Assembly: GCA_031262595.1 (NCBI GenBank)
Contig: JAISHI010000006.1
Coordinates: forward strand, 438-64,437
Direction: 5' to 3'
Source of the DNA: Christensenellaceae bacterium
GTDB lineage: Bacteria > Bacillota > Clostridia > Christensenellales > UBA1242
Length of the DNA: 64,000 nt
Positions 1-60,151 of this stretch are shown in pieces. The position numbers and the translations under genes are program-made. Within the stretch, counting starts at the first letter, position 1; each line of letters starts with the position of its first letter. The notes beneath the pieces were generated by a model. It did not search any database and was not told where the DNA came from. It saw nothing but the letters and a program-made list of their open reading frames with translations.

Positions 1-67
1 ATTCTTCATCTTCCATATGTTTGTTATATCGCAAATGCCGTTTCCATACAAGTGTTTTTATATAAAA

Positions 68-2878
68 TTATTTTAACTTCCCCTTAATGAATCGCCCCGT
101 CGTGCTGTCCCCGTTTTTCGCGACCTCTTCCGGCGTGCCTTCCGCGACAATCTCGCCGCCGTTGTCGCCGCCCTCGCGCCCGAGGTCAATAATATAGTCC
201 GCCACTTTTATAACTTCGAGGTTATGCTCGATTATAACAACGGTATTCCCGCTGTCGACGAGGCGATTTAAAATCGCGATAAGTTTTTCTACGTCATAAG
301 TCGAAAGCCCTGTCGTCGGTTCGTCGAGGATATAAAGCGTTTTGCCGGTTGCCGCGCGCGCGAGTTCCGATGCCAATTTAACGCGTTGCGCCTCGCCGCC
401 AGAGAGAGTTGTTGCGCTTTGCCCGAGTTTTATATAGCCGAGCCCAACGTCTTGAATCGTCTTAACATGCTTATATATTTGCGGAATGTTTTTAAAGAAT
501 TCGGTTGCCTCGTCGACGGTCATATCTAAAACGTCGGCGATGCTTTTCCCCTTATATTTAACCTCGAGCGTTTCGCGGTTAAAGCGCTTCCCCTTACAAG
601 ACTCGCAAGTTATAAAAACGTCGGGCAAAAAGTGCATTTCGATTTTCTTAATGCCGTCGCCGTCGCAATCATCACAACGCCCGCCGCGAACGTTAAACGA
701 AAACCGCCCGCTCGTATACCCGCGCGCTTTCGCCTCGCGCGTTTCCGCGAAAAGGTCGCGGATTTTCGTGAAAACGCCCGTATATGTTGCTGGATTGCTT
801 CGAGGCGTGCGCCCGATTGGCGATTGGTCGATGTTTATAACTTTATCGAAATGCTCCGTTCCTTTAACTTCCTTATATTTCCCGACGTCATAACTCGTTC
901 GCATTAACGCGTTCGACGCCGCAGGATACAAGATTCGGTTAACGAGGCTAGACTTCCCTGAACCCGAAACGCCCGTCACGGCGGTTAATAGCCCAACAGG
1001 AAATTTCGCGTCAATATTTTTAAGGTTGTTTTCGCTAGCGCCTATAACGTTAATAAACTTATCGCTAATTGGTCGGCGTTTTTTAGGAACTAAAATCTTC
1101 TTCGCCCCGGAAAGATACTCGCCGGTTATGCTCTCGTTATTCGCCATAATATCTTGCGGCGTTCCTTGCGCAACTAGCGTTCCGCCATAAACTCCCGCGA
1201 GTTTACCAATATCAACTATATGGTCGGCAGCCAGCATAGTTTCCTCGTCGTGCTCGACAACAATAAGCGTATTTCCCATATCGCGCAACTTTTTAAGCGT
1301 CGCGATGAGTTTTTCGTTGTCGCTTTGGTGCAGCCCTATGCTCGGTTCGTCTAGGATATAAATAACCCCAACAAGCCCCGAACCGATTTGTGTCGCGAGG
1401 CGTATGCGTTGGCTCTCGCCGCCTGAAAGGCTCTCGGCGGACCGCGCCAAAGTTAGATAATGAAGCCCGACGTCAACCAAAAATTTAAGCCGAACTTTTA
1501 TTTCCTTAATAATCTCGGCTGCGGTTAGTTCCGCCTCACCTTTGAGTTTTAAATTTTCGAAAAATTCAAGCGTCTTTATAATAGAAAGGTTCGTCAACTC
1601 GAAAATATTAAGCCCGCCGACCTTAACCGAAAGCGCTTCACGCGAAAGCCTCATTCCGCCGCAATCCGAGCATTTCGCCTCGACCATAAACTTCCCGATT
1701 TCGTTGCGCGACCAATCGCTAGTCGTTTCGTTAAAACGGCGCATCATATTCGGAATAACGCCCTCGTATCGCCCCGAAAAACTGTTTTCCCAAGTCGCGC
1801 CCTTATATTCGTATCTAATCCGCTCGTCGGTTCCGTATAAAATCTTGCGAACAACGTCTTTCGGTAAGTCTTTAATCGGCGTTCTTAAACTTATCCCGTG
1901 CGCTTTTGCGAAACTCGAAAACGTCATCATCGCCATCTTTCCGCTATCGATATACCAACCCGGCGCGTTGATTGCGCCTTCTGCTAACGAAAGATTAACA
2001 TTCGGGATAACGAGTTTAGGGTCGATTTCTTGCGTGAACCCGAGCCCGCTGCATTTTTTACAATCGCCGAACGGGCTATTAAAACTAAATGTCCGCGGTT
2101 CTAGTTCCGTTATCGAAATTCCGCAATCAATACAAGCATACTTATCGCTAAAAATTTGCGTTTCCTCGCCTGCCGAAACCGCAACAAGCCCGTTCGCGGT
2201 TCGAAGTGCAGTCTCAACATCCTCAGTTATGCGCGAAATTTCCTCGCGCGAAACGGTTATCCTATCGAGAACGATACTAATTTCATGCCGAATATTTTTA
2301 TCGAGCGCAATCGGTTCGTCGAGCATATATAAATTCCCGTCAATTTTAACGCGAACGAAACCGCTGCGTTTCCAATCGTTAAGTTCCTTCTCGAACCGCC
2401 CCTTTTCGCCGCGAACAACAGGTGCTTCGATAGTTATTTGCTCGCCCTCGCGCTGCAAAATTTGTTCGCAAATTTGCTCGGCGGTTTGGCGCGAGATCCG
2501 TTTGCCGCAAACTGGGCAATGTGGCGTGCCAACGCGCGCATAAAGCAATCTTAAATAATCGTAAATTTCCGTAACCGTTCCAACCGTCGAGCGCGGGTTA
2601 TGGTTCGTGGTTTTTTGGTCAATCGCAATCGCCGGCGATAACCCTTCTATATAATCAACCGCGGGTTTTTGGGATTGCCCTAAAAATTGCCTAGCATAAC
2701 TCGTTAGGCTTTCCATAAACCGCCGTTGCCCCTCCGCGAAAATCGTTCCGAACGCGAGCGAACTCTTTCCGCTCCCCGAAACGCCGGTAAAGACAACGAG
2801 TTTATTGCGCGGGATAACAACATCAACGTTTTTAAGGTTATGCTCCCTCGCGCCCTTTATAACAATATTTTCAAGCAT
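68..2878 (-). CDS. uvrA: Excinuclease ABC subunit A (UvrA)
   Basis: Two ABC modules (Walker A GVSGSGKSS twice, LSGGE signatures) and UvrA-type CxxC zinc-finger pairs. I trimmed the ORF-track start (TTG 2926) to ATG 2878, which gives the canonical N-terminus MLENIVIKGAREHNLKN. Confidence 0.95.
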   Translation of the reverse strand: MLENIVIKGAREHNLKNVDVVIPRNKLVVFTGVSGSGKSSLAFGTIFAEGQRRFMESLTSYARQFLGQSQKPAVDYIEGLSPAIAIDQKTTNHNPRSTVGTVTEIYDYLRLLYARVGTPHCPVCGKRISRQTAEQICEQILQREGEQITIEAPVVRGEKGRFEKELNDWKRSGFVRVKIDGNLYMLDEPIALDKNIRHEISIVLDRITVSREEISRITEDVETALRTANGLVAVSAGEETQIFSDKYACIDCGISITELEPRTFSFNSPFGDCKKCSGLGFTQEIDPKLVIPNVNLSLAEGAINAPGWYIDSGKMAMMTFSSFAKAHGISLRTPIKDLPKDVVRKILYGTDERIRYEYKGATWENSFSGRYEGVIPNMMRRFNETTSDWSRNEIGKFMVEAKCSDCGGMRLSREALSVKVGGLNIFELTNLSIIKTLEFFENLKLKGEAELTAAEIIKEIKVRLKFLVDVGLHYLTLARSAESLSGGESQRIRLATQIGSGLVGVIYILDEPSIGLHQSDNEKLIATLKKLRDMGNTLIVVEHDEETMLAADHIVDIGKLAGVYGGTLVAQGTPQDIMANNESITGEYLSGAKKILVPKKRRPISDKFINVIGASENNLKNIDAKFPVGLLTAVTGVSGSGKSSLVNRILYPAASNALMRTSYDVGKYKEVKGTEHFDKVINIDQSPIGRTPRSNPATYTGVFTKIRDLFAETREAKARGYTSGRFSFNVRGGRCDDCDGDGIKKIEMHFLPDVFITCESCKGKRFNRETLEVKYKGKSIADVLDMTVDEATEFFKNIPQIYKHVKTIQDVGLGYIKLGQSATTLSGGEAQRVKLASELARAATGKTLYILDEPTTGLSTYDVEKLIAILNRLVDSGNTVVIIEHNLEVIKVADYIIDLGREGGDNGGEIVAEGTPEEVAKNGDSTTGRFIKGKLK

Positions 2879-2885
2879 AACATTT

Positions 2886-2914
2886 ACTATATACCCATTT
2901 TCGCGGTTTAGCAA
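2886..2914 (-). promoter_or_regulatory. uvrA promoter TTGCTA-17-TATAGT, with the -10 box 7 nt from the ATG
   Basis: Hexamers read directly from the sequence. The promoter is back-to-back with the tpiA promoter. Confidence 0.6.
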
Positions 2915-2919
2915 TGCCC

Positions 2920-2949
2920 TTGACAAAATTTCGCTTCATAAAGTAAGTT
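2920..2949 (+). promoter_or_regulatory. tpiA promoter TTGACA-18-TAAGTT, with the -10 box 5 nt from the ATG
   Basis: Hexamers read directly from the sequence. Confidence 0.55.
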
Positions 2950-2954
2950 AAGGT

Positions 2955-3719
2955 ATGAAAATAATTGCTGGGAATTGGAAGATGAATATGACGCGGCGCG
3001 AAACGCTCGAATATTTCGAGCGCTACGCAGGCCTAAACCCCGATAAAAGCGGCGCGCGCGTGATTTTCCTAGTGCCCTATACGGCGATCTCGACCGCGGT
3101 CGAAACAGGCGAAAATCTTGGGTTTGAGGTTGGCGCGCAAAACGTTTATCCCGCGGCTGCCGGCGCTTATACCGGCGAAATAACCGCGGACATGATTAAA
3201 GATTGCGGCGCGAAGGTCGTTTTAGTTGGGCATAGCGAACGCCGAACGCTCTTCCGCGAGAGCGATACTTTTATAAACGAAAAGTTGCGCTGCGTTTTGG
3301 ATGCTGGGCTATCCGCAATACTTTGCGTTGGCGAAACAGCGAAGGAGCGCGAAAACGACGAAACCGAAGGCGTTCTTTGGCGGCAAATAACTATGGCGCT
3401 GGATAAACTCCCCGATTTATCGAAACTTATTATCGCTTACGAGCCTGTTTGGGCGGTCGGCAAAACCGCGGACGGAAAATCGAAAAAACCCGCAACCTCC
3501 CAACAAATCGCGGACGCCCACGCGTTCATAAAAACGATTTTAACGGGCTTTACCGACGCGAACGATATCCCTGTTCTTTACGGCGGAAACGTTAAGAGCG
3601 AAACCAGCGGCGAGATTATGCGGATCCCAAACGTTGACGGCGTTCTCGTCGGCGGCGCAAGTTTAAAAGTCGAGGAATTTTCTAAGATTATAGAAAGTAG
3701 TTCGGCATTGCTTAATTAG
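2955..3719 (+). CDS. tpiA: Triosephosphate isomerase
   Basis: 254 aa with the motifs AGNWKMN, VGHSERR, YEPVWAVG and GGASL. Confidence 0.9.
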   Translation: MKIIAGNWKMNMTRRETLEYFERYAGLNPDKSGARVIFLVPYTAISTAVETGENLGFEVGAQNVYPAAAGAYTGEITADMIKDCGAKVVLVGHSERRTLFRESDTFINEKLRCVLDAGLSAILCVGETAKERENDETEGVLWRQITMALDKLPDLSKLIIAYEPVWAVGKTADGKSKKPATSQQIADAHAFIKTILTGFTDANDIPVLYGGNVKSETSGEIMRIPNVDGVLVGGASLKVEEFSKIIESSSALLN

Positions 3720-4145: not shown

Positions 4146-4175
4146 TTGCCAAAATTTTTATCTTAGGCGTATAAT
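4146..4175 (+). promoter_or_regulatory. eno promoter TTGCCA-18-TATAAT, with the -10 box 6 nt from the ATG
   Basis: Hexamers read directly from the sequence. There is no SD at functional spacing. Confidence 0.65.
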
Positions 4176-4181
4176 TAGGTT

Positions 4182-5453
4182 ATGAAAATATTAAAACTTA
4201 CTGCGAGCGAAATTCTCGACAGCCGCGGCAACCCAACAATCGAAACCTACGCGACGGTTTCCAACGAGCGACAAGCCGTCGTCGGCTGGTGCGCCGTTCC
4301 TTCGGGCGCGTCGACGGGCGAAAAAGAGGCCGTAGAACTGCGCGACGGCGATAAGGCGCGCTATAACGGAAAGGGCGTTTTAAAAGCCGTTCAAAACGTT
4401 AACGAAACTATTCTAAAAGCCGTTTTGGGGCGCGATTTTGCGACGCAAGCCGACCTCGACAACTTTTTAATTAAACTCGACGGCACGCCGAATAAAGGAA
4501 AACTCGGCGCAAACGCAATTCTTTCCGTTTCGCTTTCCTTCGCGCGCGCTGCCTCGACCCTTTCGGGGCAAGAATTTTGGCAATATATCGCAAGTCAGGG
4601 CGGACTTCTCGAACCCGCGCTCCCAACGCCTGCGTTTAACATAATAAACGGCGGAGTTCACGCCGACAGCGGGATTGACTTCCAAGAGTTTATGATTGTT
4701 CCGCTTATGAAAACTTCTTTTGCCGAAAAACTCCGCGCAGGCAGCGAAATAACCGCGAAACTTAAAAGCATCTTAAAAATTAAAAACCTCGCGACAAGCG
4801 TTGGCGACGAGGGCGGCTTTGCGCCGAAGATGAGCAGCAAGCGCCCAATTAAACAAGCCCTCGACTTACTCATCGAAGCCATTTCAAAGGCTGGGTATAA
4901 GGCCGGCGAGGACGTTTCGATTGCGATTGACCTCGCAGCATCCGTTTTTTACGATAAAGCCCAAAAGAAATACATAGTTAAAAACGAAGAAAAAACCTTT
5001 ACGAGCCAAGAATTCGTCGACTACCTCATCGACCTTACGAAAAATTATCCGATAATCTCGCTCGAGGACCCGTTCGACGAAAACGACATGACTGGGTTCG
5101 CGACGCTAACGAAAAAAATCGGCGGAAAAGTCCAAATTGTTGGCGACGATTTGTTTTGCACGAACAAGGAACTGCTCCAAAACGGCATAGATTGCGGCGC
5201 TTGCAACAGCGTCCTCATAAAAATGAACCAAATCGGAACTCTAACCGAAACCCTCGAAACGATTTCGCTCGCGCGTTCCGCCGGCTATTCGATTTTCGTT
5301 TCGCATAGGAGCGGCGAAACAACCGACACCGCGATCGCAGACCTCGCCTTCGCAACCCACGCCGAGTTCATAAAAAGCGGCGCGCCTGTCCGAGGCGAGC
5401 GGGTTTGCAAATACAACCGCCTCATGCAAATCGAGCGCGGCGAGCGGAATTGA
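4182..5453 (+). CDS. eno: Enolase (phosphopyruvate hydratase)
   Basis: 423 aa with the N-terminus SEILDSRGNPTIE, the SHRSGETTD motif and typical enolase length. Confidence 0.9.
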   Translation: MKILKLTASEILDSRGNPTIETYATVSNERQAVVGWCAVPSGASTGEKEAVELRDGDKARYNGKGVLKAVQNVNETILKAVLGRDFATQADLDNFLIKLDGTPNKGKLGANAILSVSLSFARAASTLSGQEFWQYIASQGGLLEPALPTPAFNIINGGVHADSGIDFQEFMIVPLMKTSFAEKLRAGSEITAKLKSILKIKNLATSVGDEGGFAPKMSSKRPIKQALDLLIEAISKAGYKAGEDVSIAIDLAASVFYDKAQKKYIVKNEEKTFTSQEFVDYLIDLTKNYPIISLEDPFDENDMTGFATLTKKIGGKVQIVGDDLFCTNKELLQNGIDCGACNSVLIKMNQIGTLTETLETISLARSAGYSIFVSHRSGETTDTAIADLAFATHAEFIKSGAPVRGERVCKYNRLMQIERGERN

Positions 5454-13990: not shown

Positions 13991-16824
13991 TAGTTCGCCC
14001 CTCCGTTATCCTTATTATTTAGAAGGTCGCTGAGCATACTGCCCATATTAATTCTACCCTCTCCTTGCCTACTCCTTACGAGCGCTTCCTTATAAGCCTT
14101 CTTTTTCGATTTCATGCGTATCATAAGAATAAGGCACGCCAAGAGTAATAACGGAACTATAACCGCCGCCGCGATTAACAAGATAAACATGGTTTTGTCC
14201 GCCGTTGTTTCCGGAATAATATCAAAACTAATTCCTCCTCCCGCGAACAACTCGTCAAGTTTTTCTTTCGTTAAAACAATCGCAACCGAACTCGAATCAT
14301 ATTCTTCACCGTTTATCTTCATGCCCGCGGCGTTATAGTTCTTGTCTGGCTCGAACTTTATCGTTAAAGTGTCGCCAATCTTAACTTTTTCCGCAGAGCC
14401 TAACTCATGCCCATTAACGAGGGTTTTAAGCGTTCCGTTCGTTTCTTCTATGCCTTTTGTTATCACGATGTCGTGTTCTATCGCCCTAAAATTAAGGAAA
14501 ATAGTATTATTTCCTTGCGCAAGCGGTTGCTCCCATTCAAGCGGCTCGCTCGCGTTAGTTCTCGCCTCGCCATTAACCGTAAAATCGACAAACTCATAAT
14601 AATCGTCGGCGATCGCAACGATTTTAAGCGTTGCATTCTCGGAAATGTTCTCGTTTACCGCGTCGCTGATTTGAACGCTTGTCCATTCGTTAGTATTTGC
14701 CCCTTCGGGTATTTGCGCGACGCCGTTTATATAAAGTTCAAACTTATTAACGTCGGTTGCAACATCATTATTAACCTCGATTGCGATTAAGGCTTTTTGT
14801 CTAAATACTTGTATTAAAGTTATCTCGCCGTCTTCGTTAAGATATTTAGTTAATTCTTCAAAAGTTAGATTAATAAGCTTGCCCTCGGGGTCAAGTTCCG
14901 CGCCGTCAAGAATGCTATCAATCCCCGCGACTATTTCAAAACCTTCAGGGGTTTCGCTCGTTAAATCTACAATATTACCGTCAGCCTTTTTAAGTTGATA
15001 GCCAATAAGGTTATACCCTTCAACTGCTATTTTTTCGATAGGCTCAATAGCATCGCCTTCCCTTATATTTATTTCGCTTGCTCCAAATATATCCCCGCTC
15101 TCATCGACGGTTTGGATTAAAACAGTATATTCAACGCGGACAAACCCTATATTAAACTCTTTGTCCGCACCTAAACTAAAAACAAAAACTATGTCGCCGT
15201 TAACCGTAGTAGTCTCCATTCCTTGAGCGATAAGTTCATCTTCAAATTCGCTCGCGAGTTTATTTGTTTCGGACGGATCAACCGTTACTCGAATAGAGGT
15301 CGTCGGTTCTAGATATTTCGGCTTGCTTGGATTCGTGATTACCGTCCAAACGTTATCTGGGTCGGTTGTTTTATGATACTCAACAATAAAATCGCCCATA
15401 AGTTCGTCCGCGGCGCTCGCGTAATCAACCTTTAAACTATTATTTCGCTTATATTTCGCGGAAATTGTTATCTTGTCGCCGCTTAAATAGTTATCAAGAA
15501 ACGCTTGATTAACAATCATCGCCGAGAAACCGTTTTGATCCGCGAATTGGATATCACCATAACCGAAATACCCAACTAAATTATAACGGTTATTATCTCC
15601 GAGTATTTTGTTTCTAATCGTTATTAAGTTGTTGCCATTTTCAATAGAAACCGCGTTCTTTAAAAGTTCAATAGATATTCCCTCGCTAGCTGATGTCGCT
15701 AAGACCTCTCCCGTGCCATCTAAAACTGTCTTAATCTCAACGTTATACGAAATCGCTTTAAAGCTAACAAAGATTGTCGCCGCGTCATCCGTTCCTATTG
15801 AATCCTCATCAAGCGTTATCGCATCCGTCTCATTGCTATATAGGTTTCGATTGTCTGCCGAGTTATAAACTCTTGTCCCATCTATAAAAATTGTATCGAC
15901 TGTATAGTAATCATTAGGCTGAACAATAAGTTTAACTATATCAAACGTGCCATTTCGAACAACTTGCGTCGCCTCCGCGCCCGTTCCGAAAGCCCCGCCA
16001 ATCGAGTTGTTAACGGAAAGATGGACTGAACCGTTAGGCGCGTTCGTCGTAGCCGTAACCGTTATGGAATCCGCCGCTAAAACCGCCCTAAATTTAATTT
16101 CTTTATCCTCGTCGTCTATATATTTCGTAATAAAGTCCGGCGTTAATAACGAAAACATATCTGGATATTCGAGCGATGATATGAAATGCCAATCGTTGTC
16201 TACGCCGAATGCCTCCCAAGAAAGAACGCTGCCTCCCGTAAGACTTCCCGTCGTATATAAACGGTTTGTTTCGCCGCGCTTGACTGTCCCTTTTTCCGAC
16301 GCCGAAGAAACCGCCGCCCCGCCTTCTGTTCCAACTGATGTTAATTCGTATTCAATCGGCGTCCAAATAGCGTAAAGTATTATGTCCGAATATAACCATT
16401 CCCCAGTCCACTCGCCCGGCCCTCGCCCTATTTGAAATTCAGGGTGATTTGCTGGGTATAAAGCTTCCGCGGGATCCGTGCAAGAAGGGTTTGACGACCA
16501 ACCGCCGAAAATATAACCCTTACGGTTTTTAAGTAACTCAACTGCCTGACTGAAAGTACTATATTTAGGGTGCATAACAACTGAACCAACCATGCCTGAA
16601 ACAGCAATATCGCCAAATCCGGTTTCGCGGTTATCGTTTGCGTGAAGCTCTAATCTATACCTCTCAGTTCGTGGGTCAGTAGCGGCCGAAACTGCTGTGT
16701 TTGCTGTTATATTACTTTGAAGTGCCTCACTCGCGAACGCGCTAAGCCCAGCAACGCCGAATAACAACGCAAACGCGAGAATAACGCCGATAAAGAGTTT
16801 CTTCATATGTAATATTGTCCCCAT
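13990..16824 (-). CDS. Type-I surface protein, 944 aa, with a C-terminal TM segment and a 42-aa cytoplasmic tail
   Basis: Signal peptide, a Listeria-Bacteroides-type repeat (GYIFGGWSS...LYAIW), beta-rich modules, a TM segment (MFILLIAAAVIVPLLLLACLILMI) and a tail ending DLLNNKDNGGAN. Confidence 0.75.
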   Translation of the reverse strand: MGTILHMKKLFIGVILAFALLFGVAGLSAFASEALQSNITANTAVSAATDPRTERYRLELHANDNRETGFGDIAVSGMVGSVVMHPKYSTFSQAVELLKNRKGYIFGGWSSNPSCTDPAEALYPANHPEFQIGRGPGEWTGEWLYSDIILYAIWTPIEYELTSVGTEGGAAVSSASEKGTVKRGETNRLYTTGSLTGGSVLSWEAFGVDNDWHFISSLEYPDMFSLLTPDFITKYIDDEDKEIKFRAVLAADSITVTATTNAPNGSVHLSVNNSIGGAFGTGAEATQVVRNGTFDIVKLIVQPNDYYTVDTIFIDGTRVYNSADNRNLYSNETDAITLDEDSIGTDDAATIFVSFKAISYNVEIKTVLDGTGEVLATSASEGISIELLKNAVSIENGNNLITIRNKILGDNNRYNLVGYFGYGDIQFADQNGFSAMIVNQAFLDNYLSGDKITISAKYKRNNSLKVDYASAADELMGDFIVEYHKTTDPDNVWTVITNPSKPKYLEPTTSIRVTVDPSETNKLASEFEDELIAQGMETTTVNGDIVFVFSLGADKEFNIGFVRVEYTVLIQTVDESGDIFGASEINIREGDAIEPIEKIAVEGYNLIGYQLKKADGNIVDLTSETPEGFEIVAGIDSILDGAELDPEGKLINLTFEELTKYLNEDGEITLIQVFRQKALIAIEVNNDVATDVNKFELYINGVAQIPEGANTNEWTSVQISDAVNENISENATLKIVAIADDYYEFVDFTVNGEARTNASEPLEWEQPLAQGNNTIFLNFRAIEHDIVITKGIEETNGTLKTLVNGHELGSAEKVKIGDTLTIKFEPDKNYNAAGMKINGEEYDSSSVAIVLTKEKLDELFAGGGISFDIIPETTADKTMFILLIAAAVIVPLLLLACLILMIRMKSKKKAYKEALVRSRQGEGRINMGSMLSDLLNNKDNGGAN

Positions 16825-45738: not shown

Positions 45739-45767
45739 TTGGCAAGCGGGCGGCCGAGAATTAAAAT
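45739..45767 (+). promoter_or_regulatory. Thioesterase gene promoter TTGGCA-17-TAAAAT, with the -10 box 7 nt from the ATG
   Basis: Hexamers read directly from the sequence. Confidence 0.55.
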
Positions 45768-45774
45768 ATAAATT

Positions 45775-46299
45775 ATGAGATATAAAGTTTTAAAAGAACA
45801 ATTCATTTCGCGGGATTGCATGGTTTGCGGCAATCATAATCGGCTCAGCCTTAGGGCGCGGTTTTTCGAATGCGAGGACGCGCAGGGCGAGAAGGTTTTA
45901 ATAACTGTCGCGAAACCGAAATGGAACCACCAATCCTATCCCGACCGAATGCACGGCGGAGTTGTTTCGGCTATCCTCGACGAGAGCATCGGGCGCGCGG
46001 TTCAAATGACCCACCCCGAAATTTGGGGCGTTACGATTGACTTAACCGTTAAATTCAGGAGCGCAACCCCGCTATCGAAGAAACTTTTCGTTAAATCTAA
46101 GATAACCGAAGTCGGCTCGCGCGCGTTTCTTGGCGAAGGCGAACTTTTCGTTAAAGGCGGCGAGAAGCCTCTAGCTACCGCAAGCGGTCGGTTCTTTTTA
46201 ATCCCGGATACGAAACTAGATAGCGTCGGCATGGGTTGCCTCGATGAAGAAAATTGGCACCCAAGCGGGCTTAAATTACCGAAATATATCGAGTTTTAA
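45775..46299 (+). CDS. PaaI-family hotdog-fold thioesterase
   Basis: 174 aa with the motif HGGVVSAILDESIGRA. Confidence 0.75.
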   Translation: MRYKVLKEQFISRDCMVCGNHNRLSLRARFFECEDAQGEKVLITVAKPKWNHQSYPDRMHGGVVSAILDESIGRAVQMTHPEIWGVTIDLTVKFRSATPLSKKLFVKSKITEVGSRAFLGEGELFVKGGEKPLATASGRFFLIPDTKLDSVGMGCLDEENWHPSGLKLPKYIEF

Positions 46300-46303
46300 A
46301 TCC

Positions 46304-46753
46304 CTATTTTATCTTTATATACCGCGCCCTTTTAAAGTTATAACTCGAAAGAGCGCGGTCTAGGCTGTCGTTGTCGTGGGCGCAAATGAAGATTTCGTCG
46401 GCGGAAATATCGCTAACTATTAAAGTATGCGCGAAAAAGTTGCCGTCGAATGAGAGTTGGATAACGTCGCCGACCGAGAGTTCGTCGCGCTCGACGAAAA
46501 CGCCGCGCCCTGACTTATTTATGTAGTTATAAAAGAATTCAACGCCCGTCCAACTCGCCGACTTATCATAACCGTTTTCATAATACCAACCATAAAGCCC
46601 GCGCGTTTGTTTCATTCCGCCGGCGAATAAGCATTGGCTAACAAAATTCGTGCAATCCCCGCCGAGTTTCGCAAAATCTAAGTATTTCGGGTTGCGGCGC
46701 ATCGCCCAAGTTCGCGCGTAGGCGACAGCGGCAGCGCGGTTATATTGTTCCAT
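46304..46753 (-). CDS. Putative amidase-domain (Amidase_6-like) protein
   Basis: 149 aa with AVAYARTWA...GGDCTNFVSQCLFAGGM, a catalytic-Cys context. Confidence 0.55.
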   Translation of the reverse strand: MEQYNRAAAVAYARTWAMRRNPKYLDFAKLGGDCTNFVSQCLFAGGMKQTRGLYGWYYENGYDKSASWTGVEFFYNYINKSGRGVFVERDELSVGDVIQLSFDGNFFAHTLIVSDISADEIFICAHDNDSLDRALSSYNFKRARYIKIK

Positions 46754-46759
46754 ACCTCA

Positions 46760-47530
46760 TTATATTAGCATCTTAATTTTTGTGTCAGCCGCGTGCGTCC
46801 CAAGAAAATTCTCGATATCGCGCTCGTATAAAATAATGTCATCGAGTATAAACTTCGCGTTAAAATTATTCGGGATAAGCTTATAAATCTCGAAAAGCGT
46901 ATATGCCTCATTTATGACGAACTCCCTAACTTGCGAATTTTTATTTTTATTAAACGCAGGAATAAAGTTCGGTTTTTTGCTGTCGATAAGGATTGATAAA
47001 AATAAGAAAGTTAAAAAAATCGAGATGGAATAGTTTAAAAAGATAAAAATTAAAATCATTGCGCCGATAATCCCTAGCGAAAAGAATTTTAATCCTTTCT
47101 CAAAACCCTTGCGTTCGCTAAAAAGCTCATTAAGAATTTTTCCGCCGTCAAAACCATAAATCGGTAAAAGGTTCAAAACCGCTGGGAAAAGGTTCGCGTA
47201 AATCATGAACTCTACCCCGCTAAAAAGGCTCGGCGCAAACCAAAGCACGCTCGAAAATAGGATTATAGCGACGGCGTTCGCGAGCGGGCCCGCTAATAAA
47301 ACCGCAATTTTCTTATCGCGCGATAAAAACGAGCAATCGATATTAAGCGCGCAACCAAACGGCAAAATCGCGAGCCGCTCTACGTAAAGGTTATATCGCC
47401 GCGCAGCAGCCGCGTGGGCAAGTTCGTGTAAGATAACCGCAAAAAGCATCGCGCAAATGATTTGCCCCGCGCCCGCGACAAACGACGCGACAATAACGAC
47501 GATAAACAGCGGATGAACAAAGAACTTCAT
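46760..47530 (-). CDS. M50 family site-2 metalloprotease
   Basis: 256 aa, polytopic, with HELAHAAAA (HExxH) in the first TM region. Confidence 0.7.
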   Translation of the reverse strand: MKFFVHPLFIVVIVASFVAGAGQIICAMLFAVILHELAHAAAARRYNLYVERLAILPFGCALNIDCSFLSRDKKIAVLLAGPLANAVAIILFSSVLWFAPSLFSGVEFMIYANLFPAVLNLLPIYGFDGGKILNELFSERKGFEKGLKFFSLGIIGAMILIFIFLNYSISIFLTFLFLSILIDSKKPNFIPAFNKNKNSQVREFVINEAYTLFEIYKLIPNNFNAKFILDDIILYERDIENFLGTHAADTKIKMLI

Positions 47531-47589
47531 ATCAAGATTTATGATTTTCGGCTTGTTATTATTTCATATATAGGCTAGACTTATCTAAT

Positions 47590-48867
47590 ATGGCAAAAGC
47601 TTGGTATAAAATCGATAACGCGGGGATAATTTATCCGCTAACGTTCAAAAAAAACGACACTTCGTTTTTCCGCTTGTCCGCCGTTTTGAAAAAGGACGTT
47701 AACCCCGAAATTTTATTAAAAGCGACTGGGGCCGCGCTAATTCGGTTCCCAATGTTTAAAGTTAAAATGAAGTCGGGCTTTTTTTGGCCGTATCTCGAAG
47801 AAAACGACGCCGAAATCAAGATAACGAAGGAAAGCCCCTATCTCCATTCCCTCCATTTCCGCCGCGAGCAAAACGGCTATCTTTTTTCGGTTATGCACTA
47901 CGGAAAACGCGTTTCGGCGCAATTCTTCCACGGGCTTTGCGACGGGCACGGCGGTTTAGAGTTCTTTAAAACAGTTCTTTATTATTATTTTACCTTGTCG
48001 GGCGAAAAAATTTCGAATAACGGCGAGATTTTAACGAACGAAGTTGAGAGGCTTTTCGAGGACGATAAGGATAACTTCTTTTTAAATTATAATAAGAAGG
48101 TTTCCGCTCAGCTCGCCGACGAAAAGGCGTTTCGGCTTAAAGGAAATTTTTATAAAAACGGTTTCCAATCCATTTTCGAGGCGACTTGCGACGAGGCAAG
48201 CCTTAAAGCGGCGGCGAAAAAATACGACGCAACCGTCGGTCTTTATCTTTCCGCCCTTTTAGTTTATCATACTTATTTACTCTTTTATAAGGATAGGTTC
48301 GCGAAAAAACAATTCCCAATCCGCCTTTTCTTACCCGTTGACCTTAGAAAATATTTCGATTCGAAAACGCTCCGCAATTTCTCGCTCTTTATAAGAACAA
48401 CCCACCGTTTCGAAACTGCGCTAACCTTCGAGGACGTAATCGAAGAACTTCGCGGGCAATTCACGGAAGAATTATCAAAAGAAAAACTCGAAGCCCGAAT
48501 TAAACAAAATATCGGCTTCCAAACGATTTTACCGGTTCGATTATTGCCGCTCGCGCTTAAAAAATTCATCGTAAAAATCGCGTTTAAGTTTATAAACAGC
48601 AACGCATCGACGATAACCCTCTCAAACTTAGGAAAAATTTCGCTACCGAAAGAGTTCAACGACCTAGTAGAAAAGTTAGAGTTTACGATTCCAGCTTGTA
48701 AGGTTGCGCCGATTGTTGCATCGTCGGCTTGCTTTAACGGAAAAGTTACGATAACGCTCACTAGCATCTACATAAGCCGCGCGTTCCAAAAGCAAGTCTT
48801 TAACCAACTTCGAAACGACGGCGTTTCGTTTTATATCGAATCTAATGACGTGGAGGCGGGGTTATGA
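47590..48867 (+). CDS. Condensation-domain-like acyltransferase (HxxxDG motif)
   Basis: 425 aa. FFHGLCDGHGG resembles the catalytic motif of condensation, alcohol-acetyltransferase and PapA5 enzymes. Confidence 0.5.
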   Translation: MAKAWYKIDNAGIIYPLTFKKNDTSFFRLSAVLKKDVNPEILLKATGAALIRFPMFKVKMKSGFFWPYLEENDAEIKITKESPYLHSLHFRREQNGYLFSVMHYGKRVSAQFFHGLCDGHGGLEFFKTVLYYYFTLSGEKISNNGEILTNEVERLFEDDKDNFFLNYNKKVSAQLADEKAFRLKGNFYKNGFQSIFEATCDEASLKAAAKKYDATVGLYLSALLVYHTYLLFYKDRFAKKQFPIRLFLPVDLRKYFDSKTLRNFSLFIRTTHRFETALTFEDVIEELRGQFTEELSKEKLEARIKQNIGFQTILPVRLLPLALKKFIVKIAFKFINSNASTITLSNLGKISLPKEFNDLVEKLEFTIPACKVAPIVASSACFNGKVTITLTSIYISRAFQKQVFNQLRNDGVSFYIESNDVEAGL

Positions 48868-52696: not shown

Positions 52697-54544
52697 TTAA
52701 AGACTTATGCCGACTGGTTGCAAGGTATCGGCTGGTTGGATTACTTGCGGCTCAAGACTTGATTTAAGCCCTGTTGTGGTTATCTCTTTGGTGGTTTTCT
52801 TACGCGCTGGCGCTATAGTCCCATACTCCTCTTGCCATTTTTTCATCATATAAAATTCCAAGCCCTCTTGCCTGAGTTTTTTCTGCGTAGTTTCCTTGAG
52901 CGCAAGCTTTTTAACGACTTCCATTATAAAAGGCTCTTTATAAATAGGTCTTCGCAGTTCCTCGCCTTTATCTCGTTTTAATTTATAGGCTTCCCAATCT
53001 TCCCACGAACTAATGACCGGCCTTGCCGAATGTTTGTCAAGGCATTGCCCAATAATAGTATTATTTAAAATATGATATTTTTTTCTAAGTCCCCTATACC
53101 CTAATTTTAAAAAGACCGCCGCTATCTCTTTTTCACAATCCTCACTAAAATTAAATTTATATTTCGAATAATCAACCTCTCCCACATGCTCTTTTAACCA
53201 CTTTTCTAACATCGCTAATGATTCAACCCAGACATCTTCGGTCACCCTTTTACGCCCATTTGCCCACCCCACTAACATCGCCGGAGGGACTCCATAAGTC
53301 TCATAAATTTTAGCACGGCTCATGCCTTCTTCTTTCCAAAGCCCCACAAGTTCCGCTTTAAGTTCCTTAGTATACTTAACATCGACTTCGCTCCGCAAGA
53401 GTTCCCAACCTTCACTTTCTTTAAATGCTTTCAACTCATCGAGAGTCCTCATAATAAGCTTCTTTTTGGTTTTGACTACTGGTTTAACTTTTTTCAACCT
53501 CTCTGGCGGCTCGGTGTTTATCTTAATCTTCTCGAATAGCTGATCAAGAACTTTCGGTTTTCCCGCCGCTTCAAGTTTTTTGTCTTCTTCAATCAACCTA
53601 AGAACCTCAGCCCCGAATTCTTCTTGCCATTTTTCGATTGTAGCGTAACCAAATCCCCATTTGACGCTCAAATTCGGTTTCGTAAACTTCCCAAGTTCAA
53701 GCGCCGCAACAACACCCATTCTAAAATCCTCTGTATACTCAGCATCTTGCCGCTCCTCGCCCTTGGCTCGTTTTATTTTAAGGGCTTTTAGATCCTCAAA
53801 CGAACCAACAACAGGTTTTGGTAAAAACTCAGCAATACAGGCCCCAATAAACGCTCTACTTAAACCCTGCTTTTCAAGTCCTGGATAACCTATTTTTTTA
53901 TATTCCTCCGCTATTTCTTTCTTACAATCAATAGTATAATCAAATTGATTTCTCAAGTAATCGCCACTAGCGTAAAACTCTTTCCACATCGCCAACGATT
54001 CAATTCTAACCCTGCTGCTTGGTCCTTCTTTATTCCACCTTTCTTTGTTTGCCCTTTGTGTTTCAATCCTTTCTTTGTTTGCCCTTTTTGCTTCCGCCCT
54101 TTCTTTTTCGGCCCTTTTTTCCGCCCTCTTTTCTGCCCTCTCCTGCCTTGCCCTTTCTTTTTCGACCCTTTCTTTTCTTCTGTTTGCTATTCTCTCCGCC
54201 CTTTCTTTTTCTTCATTTCTCCTTTGTTCCGCCCTTTCCGACCTTACTTTCTCTTTTTCTACTCTTTCTTTTTCTTTGTTTGCTCTTTTTTCTGCCCTTT
54301 CTTGCCTTGCCTTTTCTGTTTCTGCTCTTTTTTTCCTTGCGTTTTCTGTTTCAGACCTTTCTATTTCTCTGTTTATCCGTTCTATTATCCTTGCTCTTTC
54401 TATCATTCTATCTGACCCCACACGCTCACTCTCTACCCTTTCTCTTGCCGCGCGCGATTTCTCTTCAGCCTTTTCTACTAATTTTTTCATCCGTTCTCTT
54501 TCCGCTTCACTCTCTACGAATACAAATTTCTTTAATTTTGCCAT
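52697..54544 (-). CDS. Hypothetical protein: ER/K-rich helix followed by duplicated HTH-like modules
   Basis: 615 aa. Residues about 20-185 are almost entirely E/R/K/A. Two modules of about 130 aa (..ESLAMWKEF.. and ..ESLAMLEKW..) flank an IS3-like HTH (YGVPPAMLVGW). Confidence 0.6.
   Translation of the reverse strand: MAKLKKFVFVESEAERERMKKLVEKAEEKSRAARERVESERVGSDRMIERARIIERINREIERSETENARKKRAETEKARQERAEKRANKEKERVEKEKVRSERAEQRRNEEKERAERIANRRKERVEKERARQERAEKRAEKRAEKERAEAKRANKERIETQRANKERWNKEGPSSRVRIESLAMWKEFYASGDYLRNQFDYTIDCKKEIAEEYKKIGYPGLEKQGLSRAFIGACIAEFLPKPVVGSFEDLKALKIKRAKGEERQDAEYTEDFRMGVVAALELGKFTKPNLSVKWGFGYATIEKWQEEFGAEVLRLIEEDKKLEAAGKPKVLDQLFEKIKINTEPPERLKKVKPVVKTKKKLIMRTLDELKAFKESEGWELLRSEVDVKYTKELKAELVGLWKEEGMSRAKIYETYGVPPAMLVGWANGRKRVTEDVWVESLAMLEKWLKEHVGEVDYSKYKFNFSEDCEKEIAAVFLKLGYRGLRKKYHILNNTIIGQCLDKHSARPVISSWEDWEAYKLKRDKGEELRRPIYKEPFIMEVVKKLALKETTQKKLRQEGLEFYMMKKWQEEYGTIAPARKKTTKEITTTGLKSSLEPQVIQPADTLQPVGISL
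53990..54490. repeat. Strand-asymmetric low-complexity region encoding an ER/K tract
   Basis: The plus strand is almost pure pyrimidine (CCCTTTCTTT-type units). As a result all three plus-strand frames are also open. Confidence 0.8.
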
Positions 54545-54549
54545 ACCCT

Positions 54550-54578
54550 ATTATAAAATATATTATAATAAAAATCAA
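54550..54578 (-). promoter_or_regulatory. Promoter TTGATT-17-TATAAT of the 615-aa gene, with the -10 box 5 nt from the ATG
   Basis: Hexamers read directly from the sequence. Confidence 0.55.
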
Positions 54579-54677: not shown

Positions 54678-54945
54678 GCTTGTCCCCAAAATTGCCCCGA
54701 GATTTCATTACAAACGAACGAAAGAGATTACTCATGTAAAGTTTATTTGTGGCACACGAAAGAGTTTGTTTAGTGCTGCTATGTTCCCATCCTGACACGG
54801 TTCGCAAAACTTCCATTGCACAAGTCCTTACAGTCAACGCAATCGCCTAACGCCGATTATAGTAAAATTCGGCACGCTTGTTGGGTCTTCGGCCTTGGTT
54901 AGCGCACAAGTTATAAGGCATCGCTAATGCCCCACCTAGACAAGC
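54678..54945 (-). ncRNA. ffs: Signal recognition particle RNA (long, Bacillus-type scRNA)
   Basis: The minus strand reads CCGTGTCAGGATGGGAACATAGCAGCACTAAAC, matching the domain IV consensus GUCAGGUCCGGAAGGAAGCAGC. The 5' GCTTGTC pairs with the 3' GACAAGC. It has its own TTGTCA-17-TATAAT promoter and a downstream hairpin with a T-run. Confidence 0.85.
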
Positions 54946-54951: not shown

Positions 54952-54980
54952 ATTATAACCTAAATTTTGCGCTTTGACAA
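54952..54980 (-). promoter_or_regulatory. SRP RNA promoter TTGTCA-17-TATAAT
   Basis: The -10 box ends about 7 nt before the 5' GCTTGTC of the SRP RNA. Its -35 hexamer overlaps the proS -35 hexamer on the opposite strand. Confidence 0.7.
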
Positions 54981-55003
54981 GTGGAAAGATAACGGGATAT
55001 AAT
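54974..55003 (+). promoter_or_regulatory. proS-tyrS promoter TTGACA-18-TATAAT, with the -10 box 7 nt from the ATG
   Basis: Hexamers read directly from the sequence. There is no room for a T-box leader. Confidence 0.65.
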
Positions 55004-55010
55004 AAACATT

Positions 55011-56273
55011 ATGAAATTCACACAAACCTTAATTCCAACGCTAAAAGAAGTTCCTGCTGATTGCGATAAAGATAACATCGCGCAAATTTTAATGACCCGA
55101 AGCGGAATGATTAAAAAAATGTTCTCGGGGTTTTATACCGCCCTGCCGCTTTATAATATTTTGCGCGACAAAATCGAAAACGAAATCCGCCTCGCTATGC
55201 GCGAAGTCGGATGTTTTGAGGTTAAGTTCCCAGTCATCGCAACGAAAGAAAGTTTCGAAGAAAGCGGGCGTTGGGAAAAGTTTGGCGGCGAGATGTTTAG
55301 GACAGCCGACCGAACCGAGCATATTCTTTGTTTATCGCCAACAAACGAAGAGGCAAGTTGCGCGGTTGCGAAAGCGTTTTTAACGAGTTATACGCAACTG
55401 CCGTTTTGTATGTTCCAAATCCAAAAGAAATACCGCGACGAAATTCGCCCGCGCGGAGGTTTAATGCGCGCGCGCGAGTTTTCTATGAAAGACGCGTATA
55501 GTTTTCATCTAACCGATAAAGATTTAGACGGCTTTTATAATGAAATGCGAGGCGCTTACGTTAAACTCTTTAAAAAACTCGGGTTTAAGGCGATTCCTGT
55601 TTCTGCGGACAACGGAAGTATGGGCGGAAGCGCGAGCGAAGAGTTTATGGTCGAGAGCCCTTCGGGGAGCGACGAGATTTTCGTTTGCGATAGTTGCGGG
55701 TTTGGCGCGAACAGCGAGGTTTTCGCAGGCGAGGTTTGCCCGAAATGCGGCGCTGGGCTTCGAAAAGTTAAGGCGTTTGAGGTCGGTCATATCTTTAAAC
55801 TCGGCGATTATTATACGAAAAAGCTCGGGATAACTTGCGCCGCGCAATCGGGAGAGCAAAAAACCTTAACTATGGGTTGTTATGGGATTGGCGTCGACCG
55901 CGTCATCAGCGCGATTATAGAAACCTTTAATGACGAGAACGGAATCGCTTATCCTGCGCCGCTCGCGCCTATAACCTTTAACTTAATAACCGCGAATATG
56001 AAGGACGAGGCACAAGTTAAGGCGAGCGAACTTCTCTATAACGAACTTAAACACTTCCCTGTAGAGGTTCTTTGGGACAACCGCGACGTTTCTATCGGCG
56101 CAAAGTTTAAGGACAGCGACCTTATCGGCGTTCCTTATCGAATTATTGTCGGGAAATCGCTAGCGCAAGGCGAAGTTGAGTTCTCGTCGCGCGACGGAAA
56201 AGTTAAAACGAACTTAAAAATCGAGAACGCACTTAAAGAAATACTAATGAAACTTTTAGGAGGGCAACTTTAA
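55011..56273 (+). CDS. proS: Prolyl-tRNA synthetase, bacterial type, without the INS editing domain
   Basis: N-terminus MKFTQTLIPTLKEVPAD, class II motifs FRTADRTEHILCLSPTNEE, YRDEIRPRGGLMRAREFSMKDAYSFH and GCYGIGVDRV. It is only 420 aa. Confidence 0.85.
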   Translation: MKFTQTLIPTLKEVPADCDKDNIAQILMTRSGMIKKMFSGFYTALPLYNILRDKIENEIRLAMREVGCFEVKFPVIATKESFEESGRWEKFGGEMFRTADRTEHILCLSPTNEEASCAVAKAFLTSYTQLPFCMFQIQKKYRDEIRPRGGLMRAREFSMKDAYSFHLTDKDLDGFYNEMRGAYVKLFKKLGFKAIPVSADNGSMGGSASEEFMVESPSGSDEIFVCDSCGFGANSEVFAGEVCPKCGAGLRKVKAFEVGHIFKLGDYYTKKLGITCAAQSGEQKTLTMGCYGIGVDRVISAIIETFNDENGIAYPAPLAPITFNLITANMKDEAQVKASELLYNELKHFPVEVLWDNRDVSIGAKFKDSDLIGVPYRIIVGKSLAQGEVEFSSRDGKVKTNLKIENALKEILMKLLGGQL

Positions 56274-57517: not shown

Positions 57518-59812
57518 TATTTCGAATGACGCGTATGCCAGCGAGAGCATTTTTTCGCAAGTTTCAAACTTAACTTTTATAATGTTAGTGCCGATTATAT
57601 CGAGAATAACACCCTCGCCGAAAGAAGAATGTTTAATTTTTGTTCCAACCGAAACGTTAAGGCTCTCGGCGGTGTCGGTTTTTGCGGTAAATTTCGGCTC
57701 GTCGTCGGTTATTTTCGGTGCGTTAAAACTCGAACCCATGAAGTCGTTAGGTTTAGGTTTTTTAGCGAACCGCCCGAAGCCGCCGCCGCCGAAACCGCCG
57801 CCGAAACCGCCGCCGAACCGCGAATATGAGCCCCCATATAACCCGAACTCGTCCTCGATTTCCTCCGCTTCGAGGTTCATTTCCTCGATGAACTCGCTAG
57901 GCGTCGTCGACTTATCAAACGACTTATCCTTCCCATACATAAACCGCGAGCGCGCCGTCGAAAGGTTAAGCGTTCTCATAGCGCGCGTTATCGCGACGTA
58001 TAAAAGCCGCCGCTCCTCCTCCATATCCTTATCATCGTTTTTCGCGCGCGAAAGCGGAAAAATCCCGTCCTCTAACCCAACGATATAAACGCATTTAAAC
58101 TCTAAGCCCTTCGCGCTATGAACGGTTGAGATAACTACTTTATTTTTTGCGTCAATGCCGTCGTCGCCGGAAGCTAACGAAACGGTTTGGAGAAATTCGG
58201 CGAGCGTCGCGGTTTTGACCTGCTCTTTTTTAACTTGGTCATAAAAATCTTTTATCGACTTCGAAAGTTGCCCAAGGTTTTGGAGGCGTTCGTAGTTTTC
58301 CTCGTTTTTCTCGGCGTCGTAATGTTTATCAAGCCCGATAATTTCTATAAACCTCTCAGCAAAAGTTAAAAGCCCGTCCTCGTCTAGGACTTTTTTCATA
58401 TCGTCGATAACTTTTAGGTAGTCCGCGATACCTTTAGTTTGCTTTGCGCCTAAATCGCCATTCGTCCAAGCATTTTTTAAAACATCGAAAAGCGGTTTGC
58501 CGCTCTCGCGCGAAGTTTCTTGTAATTTTTCAAAACTAGCCTCGCCAACGCCGCGCCGCGGAACGTTTATCGTATTCCCAATCGCAACCTCGTCGCTCGG
58601 GTTCGCGATAACGCGGAAATAATCCAGCGCAAGTTTAATTTCTGCGCGCTCATAAAACTTAAAACCGCCCCAAACGACATAATCTATGCCGTATTTGCGG
58701 AGCGCCTCCTCGAAGTTGCGCGAAAGGGCGTTTATCCGCATGAGTATCGCGCAATCGCCATAATCGCCGCCATCCCGAACATATCGCTTAATCTCGCTGA
58801 CGATTTTATCCGCCTCCGCGCGTTCGCTCGGATAACTTTTTAGCGAAACGACGCCGTCGGGAAGTTTCGAAAATAAAACTTTACCTAAGCGATTCTTATT
58901 AAAGTCAACGAGCCTACTGCTAAGCGAAACGATATTCGCAGACGAGCGGAAGTTTTCTTCAAGTTTATAAATTCGCGCCTCGGGGAAATCTTTTTGAACC
59001 TTATTTATGTTGCTTGCATCCGCGCCGCGCCAAGTATAGATACACTGGTCCTCATCGCCGACGATCATAAGGTTCCTATGAACGGAAACGAGGCGCTTAA
59101 CGATTTCGTATTGGATTGCGTTCGTATCTTGGAACTCGTCGACGAGGATATATTTAAAACCACTCGCTAATTTTTCGCGAACGAGCTCGCATTTATCTAA
59201 AAGTTCAAGCGCGCGAACTAATAAATCGTCGAAATCCAGCGCATTGGCTTTTTTAAGCCGACTTTCGTATTCGCTCATAATGCTAAAAATCTTGTCGCTG
59301 TTATGAAGATGCGCAATCTCGCCCGCGTAATAATCGAGAGCGAACCCTTGGTTCTTCATGTTCGAGATATGCCAAGAAACGCCCTTTAAAAACTGCTTGT
59401 CTTTTTCCGTTTCTGTTTCGACGTCGGCGTCGGCGGTTTTGTTTATCTCTCGCAAAACTCGCATTTGGTCGGCGTCGCTATAAATCGAAAAATCCGTCGT
59501 ATAGTTATAGCCTAACGCCTCGTTGAGTTTCGTTATATTTCGGCGAAGAAGGCGCGCGCAAAAACTATGGAACGTTCCCAAAAAGGTTTGAATCGGATGC
59601 CCAATCATATCCTCGATTCGCTGCTTCATCTCGCCCGCGGCCTTATTCGTAAAAGTTAGCGCAACAATCGCGCGTTCGGGGATCCCGCTCTTTAATAGAT
59701 ACTCGATTCGGTGCGTTAAAACGCGCGTCTTGCCGCTGCCGGCGCCGGCGGAAACGATTGCGACGCCGAGCGGCGCGCAGACTATTTCTTCCTGAGTTTC
59801 CGTTAACTTCAT
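57509..59812 (-). CDS. pcrA: ATP-dependent DNA helicase PcrA/UvrD
   Basis: 767 aa with the SF1 motifs GAGSGKT, DEFQDTN, NFRS, TVHSAKGLEF and YVAITRA. Confidence 0.9.
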   Translation of the reverse strand: MKLTETQEEIVCAPLGVAIVSAGAGSGKTRVLTHRIEYLLKSGIPERAIVALTFTNKAAGEMKQRIEDMIGHPIQTFLGTFHSFCARLLRRNITKLNEALGYNYTTDFSIYSDADQMRVLREINKTADADVETETEKDKQFLKGVSWHISNMKNQGFALDYYAGEIAHLHNSDKIFSIMSEYESRLKKANALDFDDLLVRALELLDKCELVREKLASGFKYILVDEFQDTNAIQYEIVKRLVSVHRNLMIVGDEDQCIYTWRGADASNINKVQKDFPEARIYKLEENFRSSANIVSLSSRLVDFNKNRLGKVLFSKLPDGVVSLKSYPSERAEADKIVSEIKRYVRDGGDYGDCAILMRINALSRNFEEALRKYGIDYVVWGGFKFYERAEIKLALDYFRVIANPSDEVAIGNTINVPRRGVGEASFEKLQETSRESGKPLFDVLKNAWTNGDLGAKQTKGIADYLKVIDDMKKVLDEDGLLTFAERFIEIIGLDKHYDAEKNEENYERLQNLGQLSKSIKDFYDQVKKEQVKTATLAEFLQTVSLASGDDGIDAKNKVVISTVHSAKGLEFKCVYIVGLEDGIFPLSRAKNDDKDMEEERRLLYVAITRAMRTLNLSTARSRFMYGKDKSFDKSTTPSEFIEEMNLEAEEIEDEFGLYGGSYSRFGGGFGGGFGGGGFGRFAKKPKPNDFMGSSFNAPKITDDEPKFTAKTDTAESLNVSVGTKIKHSSFGEGVILDIIGTNIIKVKFETCEKMLSLAYASFEILN

Positions 59813-59820
59813 TATCCTCT

Positions 59821-59849
59821 ATAATACAACAGCGCGCGTGAACGGGCAA
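59821..59849 (-). promoter_or_regulatory. pcrA promoter TTGCCC-17-TATTAT, with the -10 box 8 nt from the ATG
   Basis: Hexamers read directly from the sequence. Confidence 0.5.
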
Positions 59850-59893
59850 GTTAATACTTGCGCTTTCCCTAACTTTAATTTAAGATTTTAGAA

Positions 59894-60151
59894 GTGAAGA
59901 AGATTTGGGCGAAAGTTATCATAAACTTTAAGGTTAAAAAGAGTATTTTATTCGAGGCTAAGGAAGAAATTACTACCTCCAATTTTTATGGTTTCGTTAT
60001 CGAGGTTTGCAATGCATTAAAACTGCCGACGCCGCTCATAACGCCAATCCAAACAAACAACTTTTTAGAATTTAATATCTTAAAGTTAAAACAACGCGAC
60101 TTCATCGAGGAAATCGCGTTTGATATCTTGCAATTTGAACTTTGCGAGTAA
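59894..60151 (+). CDS. Hypothetical small protein
   Basis: 85-aa ORF with a GTG start 7 nt after a TAAGAT box. No family recognised. Confidence 0.35.
   Translation: MKKIWAKVIINFKVKKSILFEAKEEITTSNFYGFVIEVCNALKLPTPLITPIQTNNFLEFNILKLKQRDFIEEIAFDILQFELCE

Follow-up and report, generated by a model that had tools for sequence, protein, structure and literature searches.

Many transcription units in the genome of a Christensenellaceae bacterium (GenBank assembly GCA_031262595.1, hereafter G000) are very probably built for leaderless expression, with a sigma-A-type promoter whose -10 box ends only 5-8 nucleotides (nt) before the start codon of the first gene. A preliminary description of a 64,000-nt stretch of contig JAISHI010000006.1 (positions 438 to 64,437; hereafter the window) had listed 17 such starts and proposed that they are pervasive. 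Here the layout was followed through the whole assembly (811 kb in 29 contigs, 44% GC, 83%-complete), for which 718 genes were called, and through related genomes. The source organism is an endospore-forming Firmicute, because the window carries a spoIIAA-spoIIAB-sigF operon. An affiliation with CPR/Patescibacteria, suggested at first by the small genome, was rejected in view of this operon and of relatives that fall in a Clostridia order with genomes of 1.4-3.2 Mb. A search with DnaN gave distant matches only, at 27-30% identity, in Actinomycetota and Eubacteriales. The sequences show the geometry of the promoters, their genome-wide excess and their make-up of two elements, and they show that the start codons are correctly placed, that genes divide between Shine-Dalgarno (SD) and leaderless types and that the trait is restricted to a small clade, in which it took the place of an SD-led ancestral state; from these observations we strongly infer the leaderless reading itself, that is, where transcription starts and how ribosomes are loaded.

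Sigma-A promoters abutting gene starts

In the strict test used throughout, the -35 hexamer starts with TTG and matches at four or more of its six positions, the spacer is 16-18 nt and the -10 hexamer is of the form TAnnnT, again with at least four of six matches. This two-element pattern has 829 matches genome-wide. The housekeeping promoter criteria were a TTGACA-like -35, a spacer of 17±1 bp, a TATAAT-like -10 (A2, T6) and an optional TG extension. The gap was taken as the distance from the -10 box to the next in-frame start candidate of the gene, and its distribution bears out genome-wide what had been claimed for the window. Gaps of 5, 6, 7, 8 and 9 nt hold 35, 61, 26, 17 and 12 matches respectively (mode 6), compared with approximately 3 per bin at 10-60 nt. 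The predicted enrichment of TAnnnT near starts was also found, amounting to 3-4x at a gap of 5-6 nt, and it does not depend on start selection, being seen when the longest open reading frame (ORF) or the first ATG is simply taken as the start.

The strict layout marks 159 distinct starts among the 718 genes (134 ATG, 14 GTG and 11 TTG), with a gap of 5-8 nt in 139 of them and spacers of 17 (97 sites), 18 (42) and 16 nt (20). Its frequency follows gene position, from 32% where the upstream neighbour is divergent, through 22% where it lies on the same strand at a gap of at least 40 nt, to 12% within operons; among in-frame internal start-like codons it falls to 13 of 5167 (0.25%). The layout precedes 122 of 449 operon-leading genes (27%) and, when every gene with a product of 150 amino acids (aa) or more is counted, 22%. 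When the -10 box alone is counted, 155 of the 449 operon-leading genes have one, against a background of 56. An independent promoter scan of positions 42001-62000 of the window points the same way. It gave 11 top matches, each agreeing at 10 or more of 12 positions, and seven of these end 5-8 nt before a gene start.

These sites are two-element sigma-A promoters. A TTG -35 at 16-18 nt accompanies 67% of the -10 boxes that lie 5-8 nt before operon-leading starts, compared with 14% of boxes 14-59 nt upstream and only 8% of -10-like hexamers across the genome. The TG-extended form of the -10 (G at -14, T at -15) is enriched among the genome-wide sites. The base immediately before the start codon (position -1) is T in 62% of sites and a pyrimidine in 81%, compared with 39% pyrimidine at SD-led genes. 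Together with A(+1) and T(+2) of the start codon, this pyrimidine forms a Y-R-Y start element. Where such an element has its centre 7-8 bp beyond the -10, it sets the position at which transcription begins in 79-93% of promoters (PMC12641261). With a 6-nt gap the A of ATG is the seventh base after the -10 box and hence would be the canonical +1.

The signal recognition particle (SRP) RNA provides a calibrator, as the 5' end of this RNA is set by structure and not by a start codon. The window carries a large SRP RNA (Rfam RF01854, 120 bits):

54678..54945, minus strand: large SRP RNA, with promoter TTGTCA-17-TATAAT at 54952-54980

The -10 box of its promoter ends 6 nt before model position 1, and 25 of 30 other family genomes likewise have a TTGnnn-17-TATAAT promoter that ends 6-8 nt (mode 7) ahead of the model start. 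The same type of promoter at the same distance therefore supports the leaderless starts, although this support is indirect because SRP RNA can be processed. The -35 of the SRP RNA (TTGTCA) overlaps that of the divergent proS gene (TTGACA) by five of six bases, a near-palindromic TTGACAA serving both, and a hairpin with a T-run lies downstream of the RNA at 54647-54666. Bit scores of the SRP RNA are lowest in leaderless-rich genomes (G002 84, G005 114, G000 120, G033 134); most others reach 140-186.

How would genes with this layout be expressed? Sigma-A RNA polymerase would bind an ordinary promoter (-35, 17-bp spacer, -10 with or without TG) and, because the -10 ends 5-8 nt before the start codon, transcription would begin at, or 1-3 bases from, the A (or G) of that codon. 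The resulting mRNA would have neither a 5' untranslated region (UTR) nor an SD site. Its 5'-terminal AUG would presumably be bound directly by the ribosome and initiator tRNA, as in Actinobacteria and Deinococcus. Operon-internal genes and a good share of first genes, by this account, would keep an SD paired with the CCUCC anti-SD.

Start codons in the window and competing explanations

When the 60 nt before each start were read, all hexamers, spacers, gaps and start codons of the 17 layouts first described in the window proved to be present as reported; two of the -10 boxes, however, do not have the conserved final T. The strict test is passed by 11 of them (uvrA, eno, the 944-aa gene, the radical SAM gene, dnaN, recR, the thioesterase, the acyltransferase, the 615-aa gene, proS and pcrA). 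Four more (tpiA, mscS, the DUF2726-like 192-aa gene and the 85-aa ORF) have a TAnnnT -10 and a weaker hexamer. The earlier list lacked at least three comparable sites, at ATG 45708, 46753 and 61645, all on the minus strand. Each line below gives coordinates, strand, gene and layout (-35, spacer, -10, gap and start codon with its position); "HMM" refers to the family hidden Markov model.

14..51, minus: left-edge gene, TTGTAT-17-TATAAC-6-ATG(16), doubtful
2876..2914, minus: uvrA, TTGCTA-17-TATAGT-7-ATG(2878), HMM begins at residue 3-4
2920..2957, plus: tpiA, TTGACA-18-TAAGTT-5-ATG(2955), back to back with the uvrA promoter, HMM begins at residue 3
4146..4184, plus: eno, TTGCCA-18-TATAAT-6-ATG(4182)
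16822..16861, minus: 944-aa gene, TTGACT-17-TAAAAT-8-ATG(16824)
25342..25380, plus: mscS-family gene, TTGTAT-17-TATAAT-7-ATG(25378)
27103..27119, minus: 192-aa (DUF2726-like) gene, TG-extended TATAAT-5-ATG(27105), weak -35
32924..32961, plus: B12/radical SAM gene, TTGTCA-17-TACATT-6-ATG(32959)
35564..35601, plus: dnaN, TTGACT-17-TATAAT-6-ATG(35599), HMM position 1 on residue 1
36718..36756, plus: degV, TTGCCA-18-TATAAA-6-ATG(36754), doubtful
42962..42999, minus: recR, TTGCTA-17-TATAAT-6-GTG(42964)
45706..45745, minus: 188-aa gene (new site), TTGCCA-17-TATAAT-8-ATG(45708)
45739..45777, plus: 174-aa gene ("thioesterase"), TTGGCA-17-TAAAAT-7-ATG(45775)
46751..46788, minus: 149-aa gene (new site), CTGACA-18-TATAAT-5-ATG(46753), operon-internal promoter
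47553..47592, plus: 425-aa gene ("acyltransferase"), TTGTTA-17-TAGACT-8-ATG(47590)
54542..54578, minus: 615-aa gene, TTGATT-17-TATAAT-5-ATG(54544)
54974..55013, plus: proS, TTGACA-18-TATAAT-7-ATG(55011), HMM position 1 on residue 1
59810..59849, minus: pcrA, TTGCCC-17-TATTAT-8-ATG(59812)
59858..59896, plus: 85-aa ORF (putative gene, no family match), TTGCGC-17-TAAGAT-7-GTG(59894)
61643..61682, minus: 497-aa gene (new site), TTGACG-17-TATTAT-8-ATG(61645)

The N-termini that result from these starts fit their families, as had been proposed. NCBIfam models start at residue 1-5 of UvrA, TpiA, Eno, DnaN, ProRS, RecR and PcrA, and for these seven proteins neither the longer ORF-track start nor any downstream start fits the models better. 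The starts given by the ORF track do need correction for uvrA, mscS, the radical SAM gene, dnaN and recR. In the mscS-family gene, the longest ORF opens at 25342 with a TTG that belongs to the gene's own -35 box (25342-25347).

The complementary claim, that operon-internal genes of the window are SD-led, was likewise upheld, with AGGAG, GGAGG or GAGGT found 4-12 nt upstream. The 3' end of the 16S rRNA reads GGATCACCTCCTTT, and the anti-SD CCUCC is kept (...CACCTCCTTT). Some first genes of the window (e.g., 20321, 44145 and 45087) are leadered and have an SD, and genome-wide the strict layout and a 5-nt SD core are combined in only nine genes. One earlier statement did not survive. AGGT had been reported in about half of the gaps; it is present at six of the 17 window sites and at only 7 of 154 sites genome-wide. 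It was rejected as a general functional element of the gap, and its presence in the window is a local coincidence and no feature of this class of site.

Could the promoters be real and several of the start codons mis-assigned, so that initiation occurs at downstream in-frame codons after short ordinary leaders? The 944-aa, 615-aa, 425-aa, 174-aa and 85-aa genes have no family models against which their starts can be checked, 52 of 154 sites differ from the longest-ORF start, and the in-frame ATG at 35626 in dnaN is preceded by a GGAG at 5 nt. However, the seven family models that start at residue 1-5 from the claimed starts include that of DnaN, and a sharp peak in the gap to the nearest in-frame start is incompatible with true starts at variable downstream distances. 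An SD is also rare near these genes, as seen in the nine that combine one with the strict layout. Mis-assignment is therefore unlikely. A role for the TATAAT-like box in translation, as an A/U-rich, SD-independent element within a longer leader (of the group-B, Bacteroidetes-type or S1-dependent kind), is less likely still. SD-less initiation in other phyla is aided by A/U-rich upstream sequence (PMC5397173), and about half of the G000 genes lack both a strict promoter and a strong SD. Yet a translation element would not account for the TTG -35 that stands at 16-18 nt from these boxes in 67% of cases against 8% genome-wide, for the enriched TG extension, or for the same element at the same distance before the SRP RNA gene. 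The box is rare before internal genes, which bear an SD, and it does not precede all genes as it would in group B. S1-dependent initiation in particular sits poorly with the finding that the assembly yielded no multi-domain S1 homologue.

It is highly improbable that the pattern arises by chance from AT-rich intergenic DNA and the choice among start candidates. Promoter-like matches in 42001-62000 do exceed those in shuffled sequence only modestly (37 compared with 28.8 ± 4.2). Against this, the gap peak stands 5-20x above background and is confined to 5-9 nt, and the TAnnnT peak at 5-6 nt persists without start selection. Position-shift controls also contradict chance, the ratio of patterns with a gap of 5-7 nt to those with 15-17 nt being 6.6 in G000 and 0.58-1.81 in 78 other Clostridia.

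Several points weigh against leaderless expression or narrow its extent. Both the gene calls, made with a simple codon-usage model, and the promoter criteria are simple models of our own. Start-codon usage lends no support, because ATG is not commoner at leaderless-type starts (89%) than at SD-led starts (94%). Two of the 17 original sites, degV (TATAAA) and the left-edge gene (TATAAC), are doubtful since their -10 boxes are defective, without the nearly invariant last T. Gaps of 8-9 nt may leave transcripts with a leader of 1-3 nt, and read-through from upstream promoters could yield leadered copies of the same genes.

Some further features of the window adjoin these sites. A tRNA gene (16921-17004, minus strand) lies directly upstream of the promoter of the operon led by the 944-aa gene. 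In the divergent pair that starts at 45708 (minus) and 45775 (plus), the palindrome CCGCTTGGCAAGCGG (45735-45749) holds both -35 elements, TTGCCA and TTGGCA, on opposite strands; the promoter/terminator scan also lists it as a terminator-like hairpin. The ProRS encoded at 55011-56273 (plus) has only 420 aa. It aligns to the bacterial-type model over two separate segments, the better of which pairs residues 1-237 with profile positions 1-235 of 559, and therefore the editing (INS) insertion is apparently missing.

Distribution of the layout and direction of change

Genomes of the family under study measure 0.7-1.6 Mb, compared with 1.4-3.2 Mb in other families of the same order. They were compared by the number of TTG-N19-21-TANAAT-N5-7-ATG matches divided by that of the same pattern with N15-17. 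The ratio of 6.6 in G000 is the highest among 101 species of the family, whose median is 1.17, and eight of the 101 genomes reach 3.7 or more. The preliminary description had held that leaderless genes are not the norm in Firmicutes; this agrees with the 78 Clostridia genomes of varied GC outside the family, all of which lie at the baseline range given above.

Gene-aware counts, made on samples of approximately 100 kb (47 kb for G013), give leaderless-type shares of 0.22 in G000 and, among its high-ratio relatives, of 0.19 in G070, 0.25 in G005 and 0.12 in G033. Elsewhere in the family the share is 0.03-0.13 in three members and 0.25 in G013, the latter from just 32 genes, and in four other families of the order it is 0.00-0.01. 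Use of the SD core is lower in the high group (0.28-0.33) than in the four other families and in G004, G008 and G010 (0.44-0.59).

In a maximum-likelihood tree of the single gene product UvrA, G000, G005, G073, G002 and G070 form a clade with support of 100/100, which G033 joins at 81/90; all of these are high-ratio genomes. The high-ratio G055 is nested in a low-ratio clade. Because G055 sits apart, at least two changes are needed on the UvrA tree alone. UvrA itself is altered in genus g62 (G103 and G061), where a single 859-aa frame matches over residues 1-288 and again over 377-933, the segment between them having been replaced or lost.

Individual genes differ in how widely they carry the layout. 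The eno gene is leaderless-type only in G000, and all 18 relatives examined have AAGGAG-type sites. The uvrA layout is kept in the four nearest genomes; elsewhere uvrA is almost always SD-led, often directly after uvrB, with G038 as a possible exception. More generally, orthologues of the leaderless-type genes of G000 are mostly SD-led in low-ratio relatives, and 13 of 13 are SD-led in other families. Because leaderless eno is confined to G000, leaderless uvrA extends across the clade and the orthologues are mostly SD-led, the leaderless state is derived and recent, with single genes converted at different times.

A fuller scenario can be proposed, to which we would give slightly less than an even chance. 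In it, a clade of a few genera within this family of gut Clostridia with genomes of approximately 1 Mb switched about one fifth of its genes, eno, uvrA, dnaN and proS among them, from SD-led to leaderless gene by gene, without ever giving up the anti-SD or the SD-led internal genes; the same switch would have occurred independently in one or more other lineages of the family. If this is true, the family forms a graded natural series, with leaderless shares from 0 to 0.25, in which the driver of the switch could be probed. A change in the initiation machinery would be one possible driver. In this respect, no multi-domain homologue of ribosomal protein S1 was found in the 83%-complete G000 assembly, and an S1-like protein of approximately 350 aa is present in about 36 of the 101 family genomes. 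Loss of S1 was considered as the cause and rejected. S1 is missing from G000, genus g3, G033, G055 and G103, yet genus g6, which is leaderless-rich, has it and many SD-led relatives lack it. There is thus no clean link, as the presence of S1 does not track the leaderless trait.

Comparison with known leaderless systems

The mechanism proposed for G000 is already known, and surveys with GeneMarkS-2 and GeneMark-HM have flagged such genomes in bulk. GeneMarkS-2 places 90% of Actinobacteria and 97% of Deinococcus-Thermus, and 3.4% of Firmicutes, in its group C (PMC6028130). In group C genomes, e.g., Mycobacterium tuberculosis and Deinococcus deserti, the first genes of 25-50% of operons have a Pribnow box 6-8 nt ahead of their starts, the remaining genes use an SD ribosome-binding site at a similar distance, and gene finders mis-call starts (PMC6028130). 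G000 shares these properties, its 27% of operon-leading genes falling within that range, and judged on our own counts of promoter architecture it appears to be a genome of the group C type. However, the typical members belong to Actinobacteria and Deinococcus-Thermus, have a high GC content and combine TAnnnT boxes with a weak -35, whereas G000 is a spore-forming Firmicute of 44% GC with full TTGnnn-17-TATAAT promoters that are often TG-extended. GeneMark-HM placed 717 of the 4930 species bins from the human gut in group C, their lineages not being discussed (PMC8153819). No paper on the present lineage was found in the literature on leaderless genes; what is added here is the clade-level distribution, the evidence for a derived state and the SRP RNA calibrator.

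Leaderless genes have been predicted in some Firmicutes, at 2.4-16.6% of genes with a mean of 4.2% (Zheng et al. 2011, PMC3160421). These bacteria (the Lactobacillales groups Lactococcus-Streptococcus and Oenococcus-Leuconostoc, and Mycoplasma) resemble the present case in low GC, in a TAtAAT located approximately 10 nt upstream of the start, often with a TG in front of it, and in a patchy, clade-wise spread (PMC3160421). In contrast, that set had no Clostridia, and G000 has approximately 22% of genes under a stricter two-element test, usually with a -35 present. Transcription starts have been mapped by Capp-Switch in three solventogenic clostridia, where the length of the 5' UTR peaks at 32 nt and is below 6 nt in only about 2-3% of transcripts (PMC9045289). 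These belong to the same class and have the same sigma-A consensus, and their low leaderless share matches the baseline of the 78 other Clostridia.

The G000 clade would thus add a group of Firmicutes to the few bacteria with leaderless levels like those of Actinobacteria. Gene callers that reward an SD or the longest ORF will misplace starts in this lineage, and promoter predictions here double as predictions of start codons. As close relatives are still SD-led, comparing members of the family could show how such a switch comes about. The -10 box of SD-led relatives often lies just 15-17 nt before the ATG, with the SD between the two, so that leaders of approximately 10 nt seem to be widespread in this family of small genomes.

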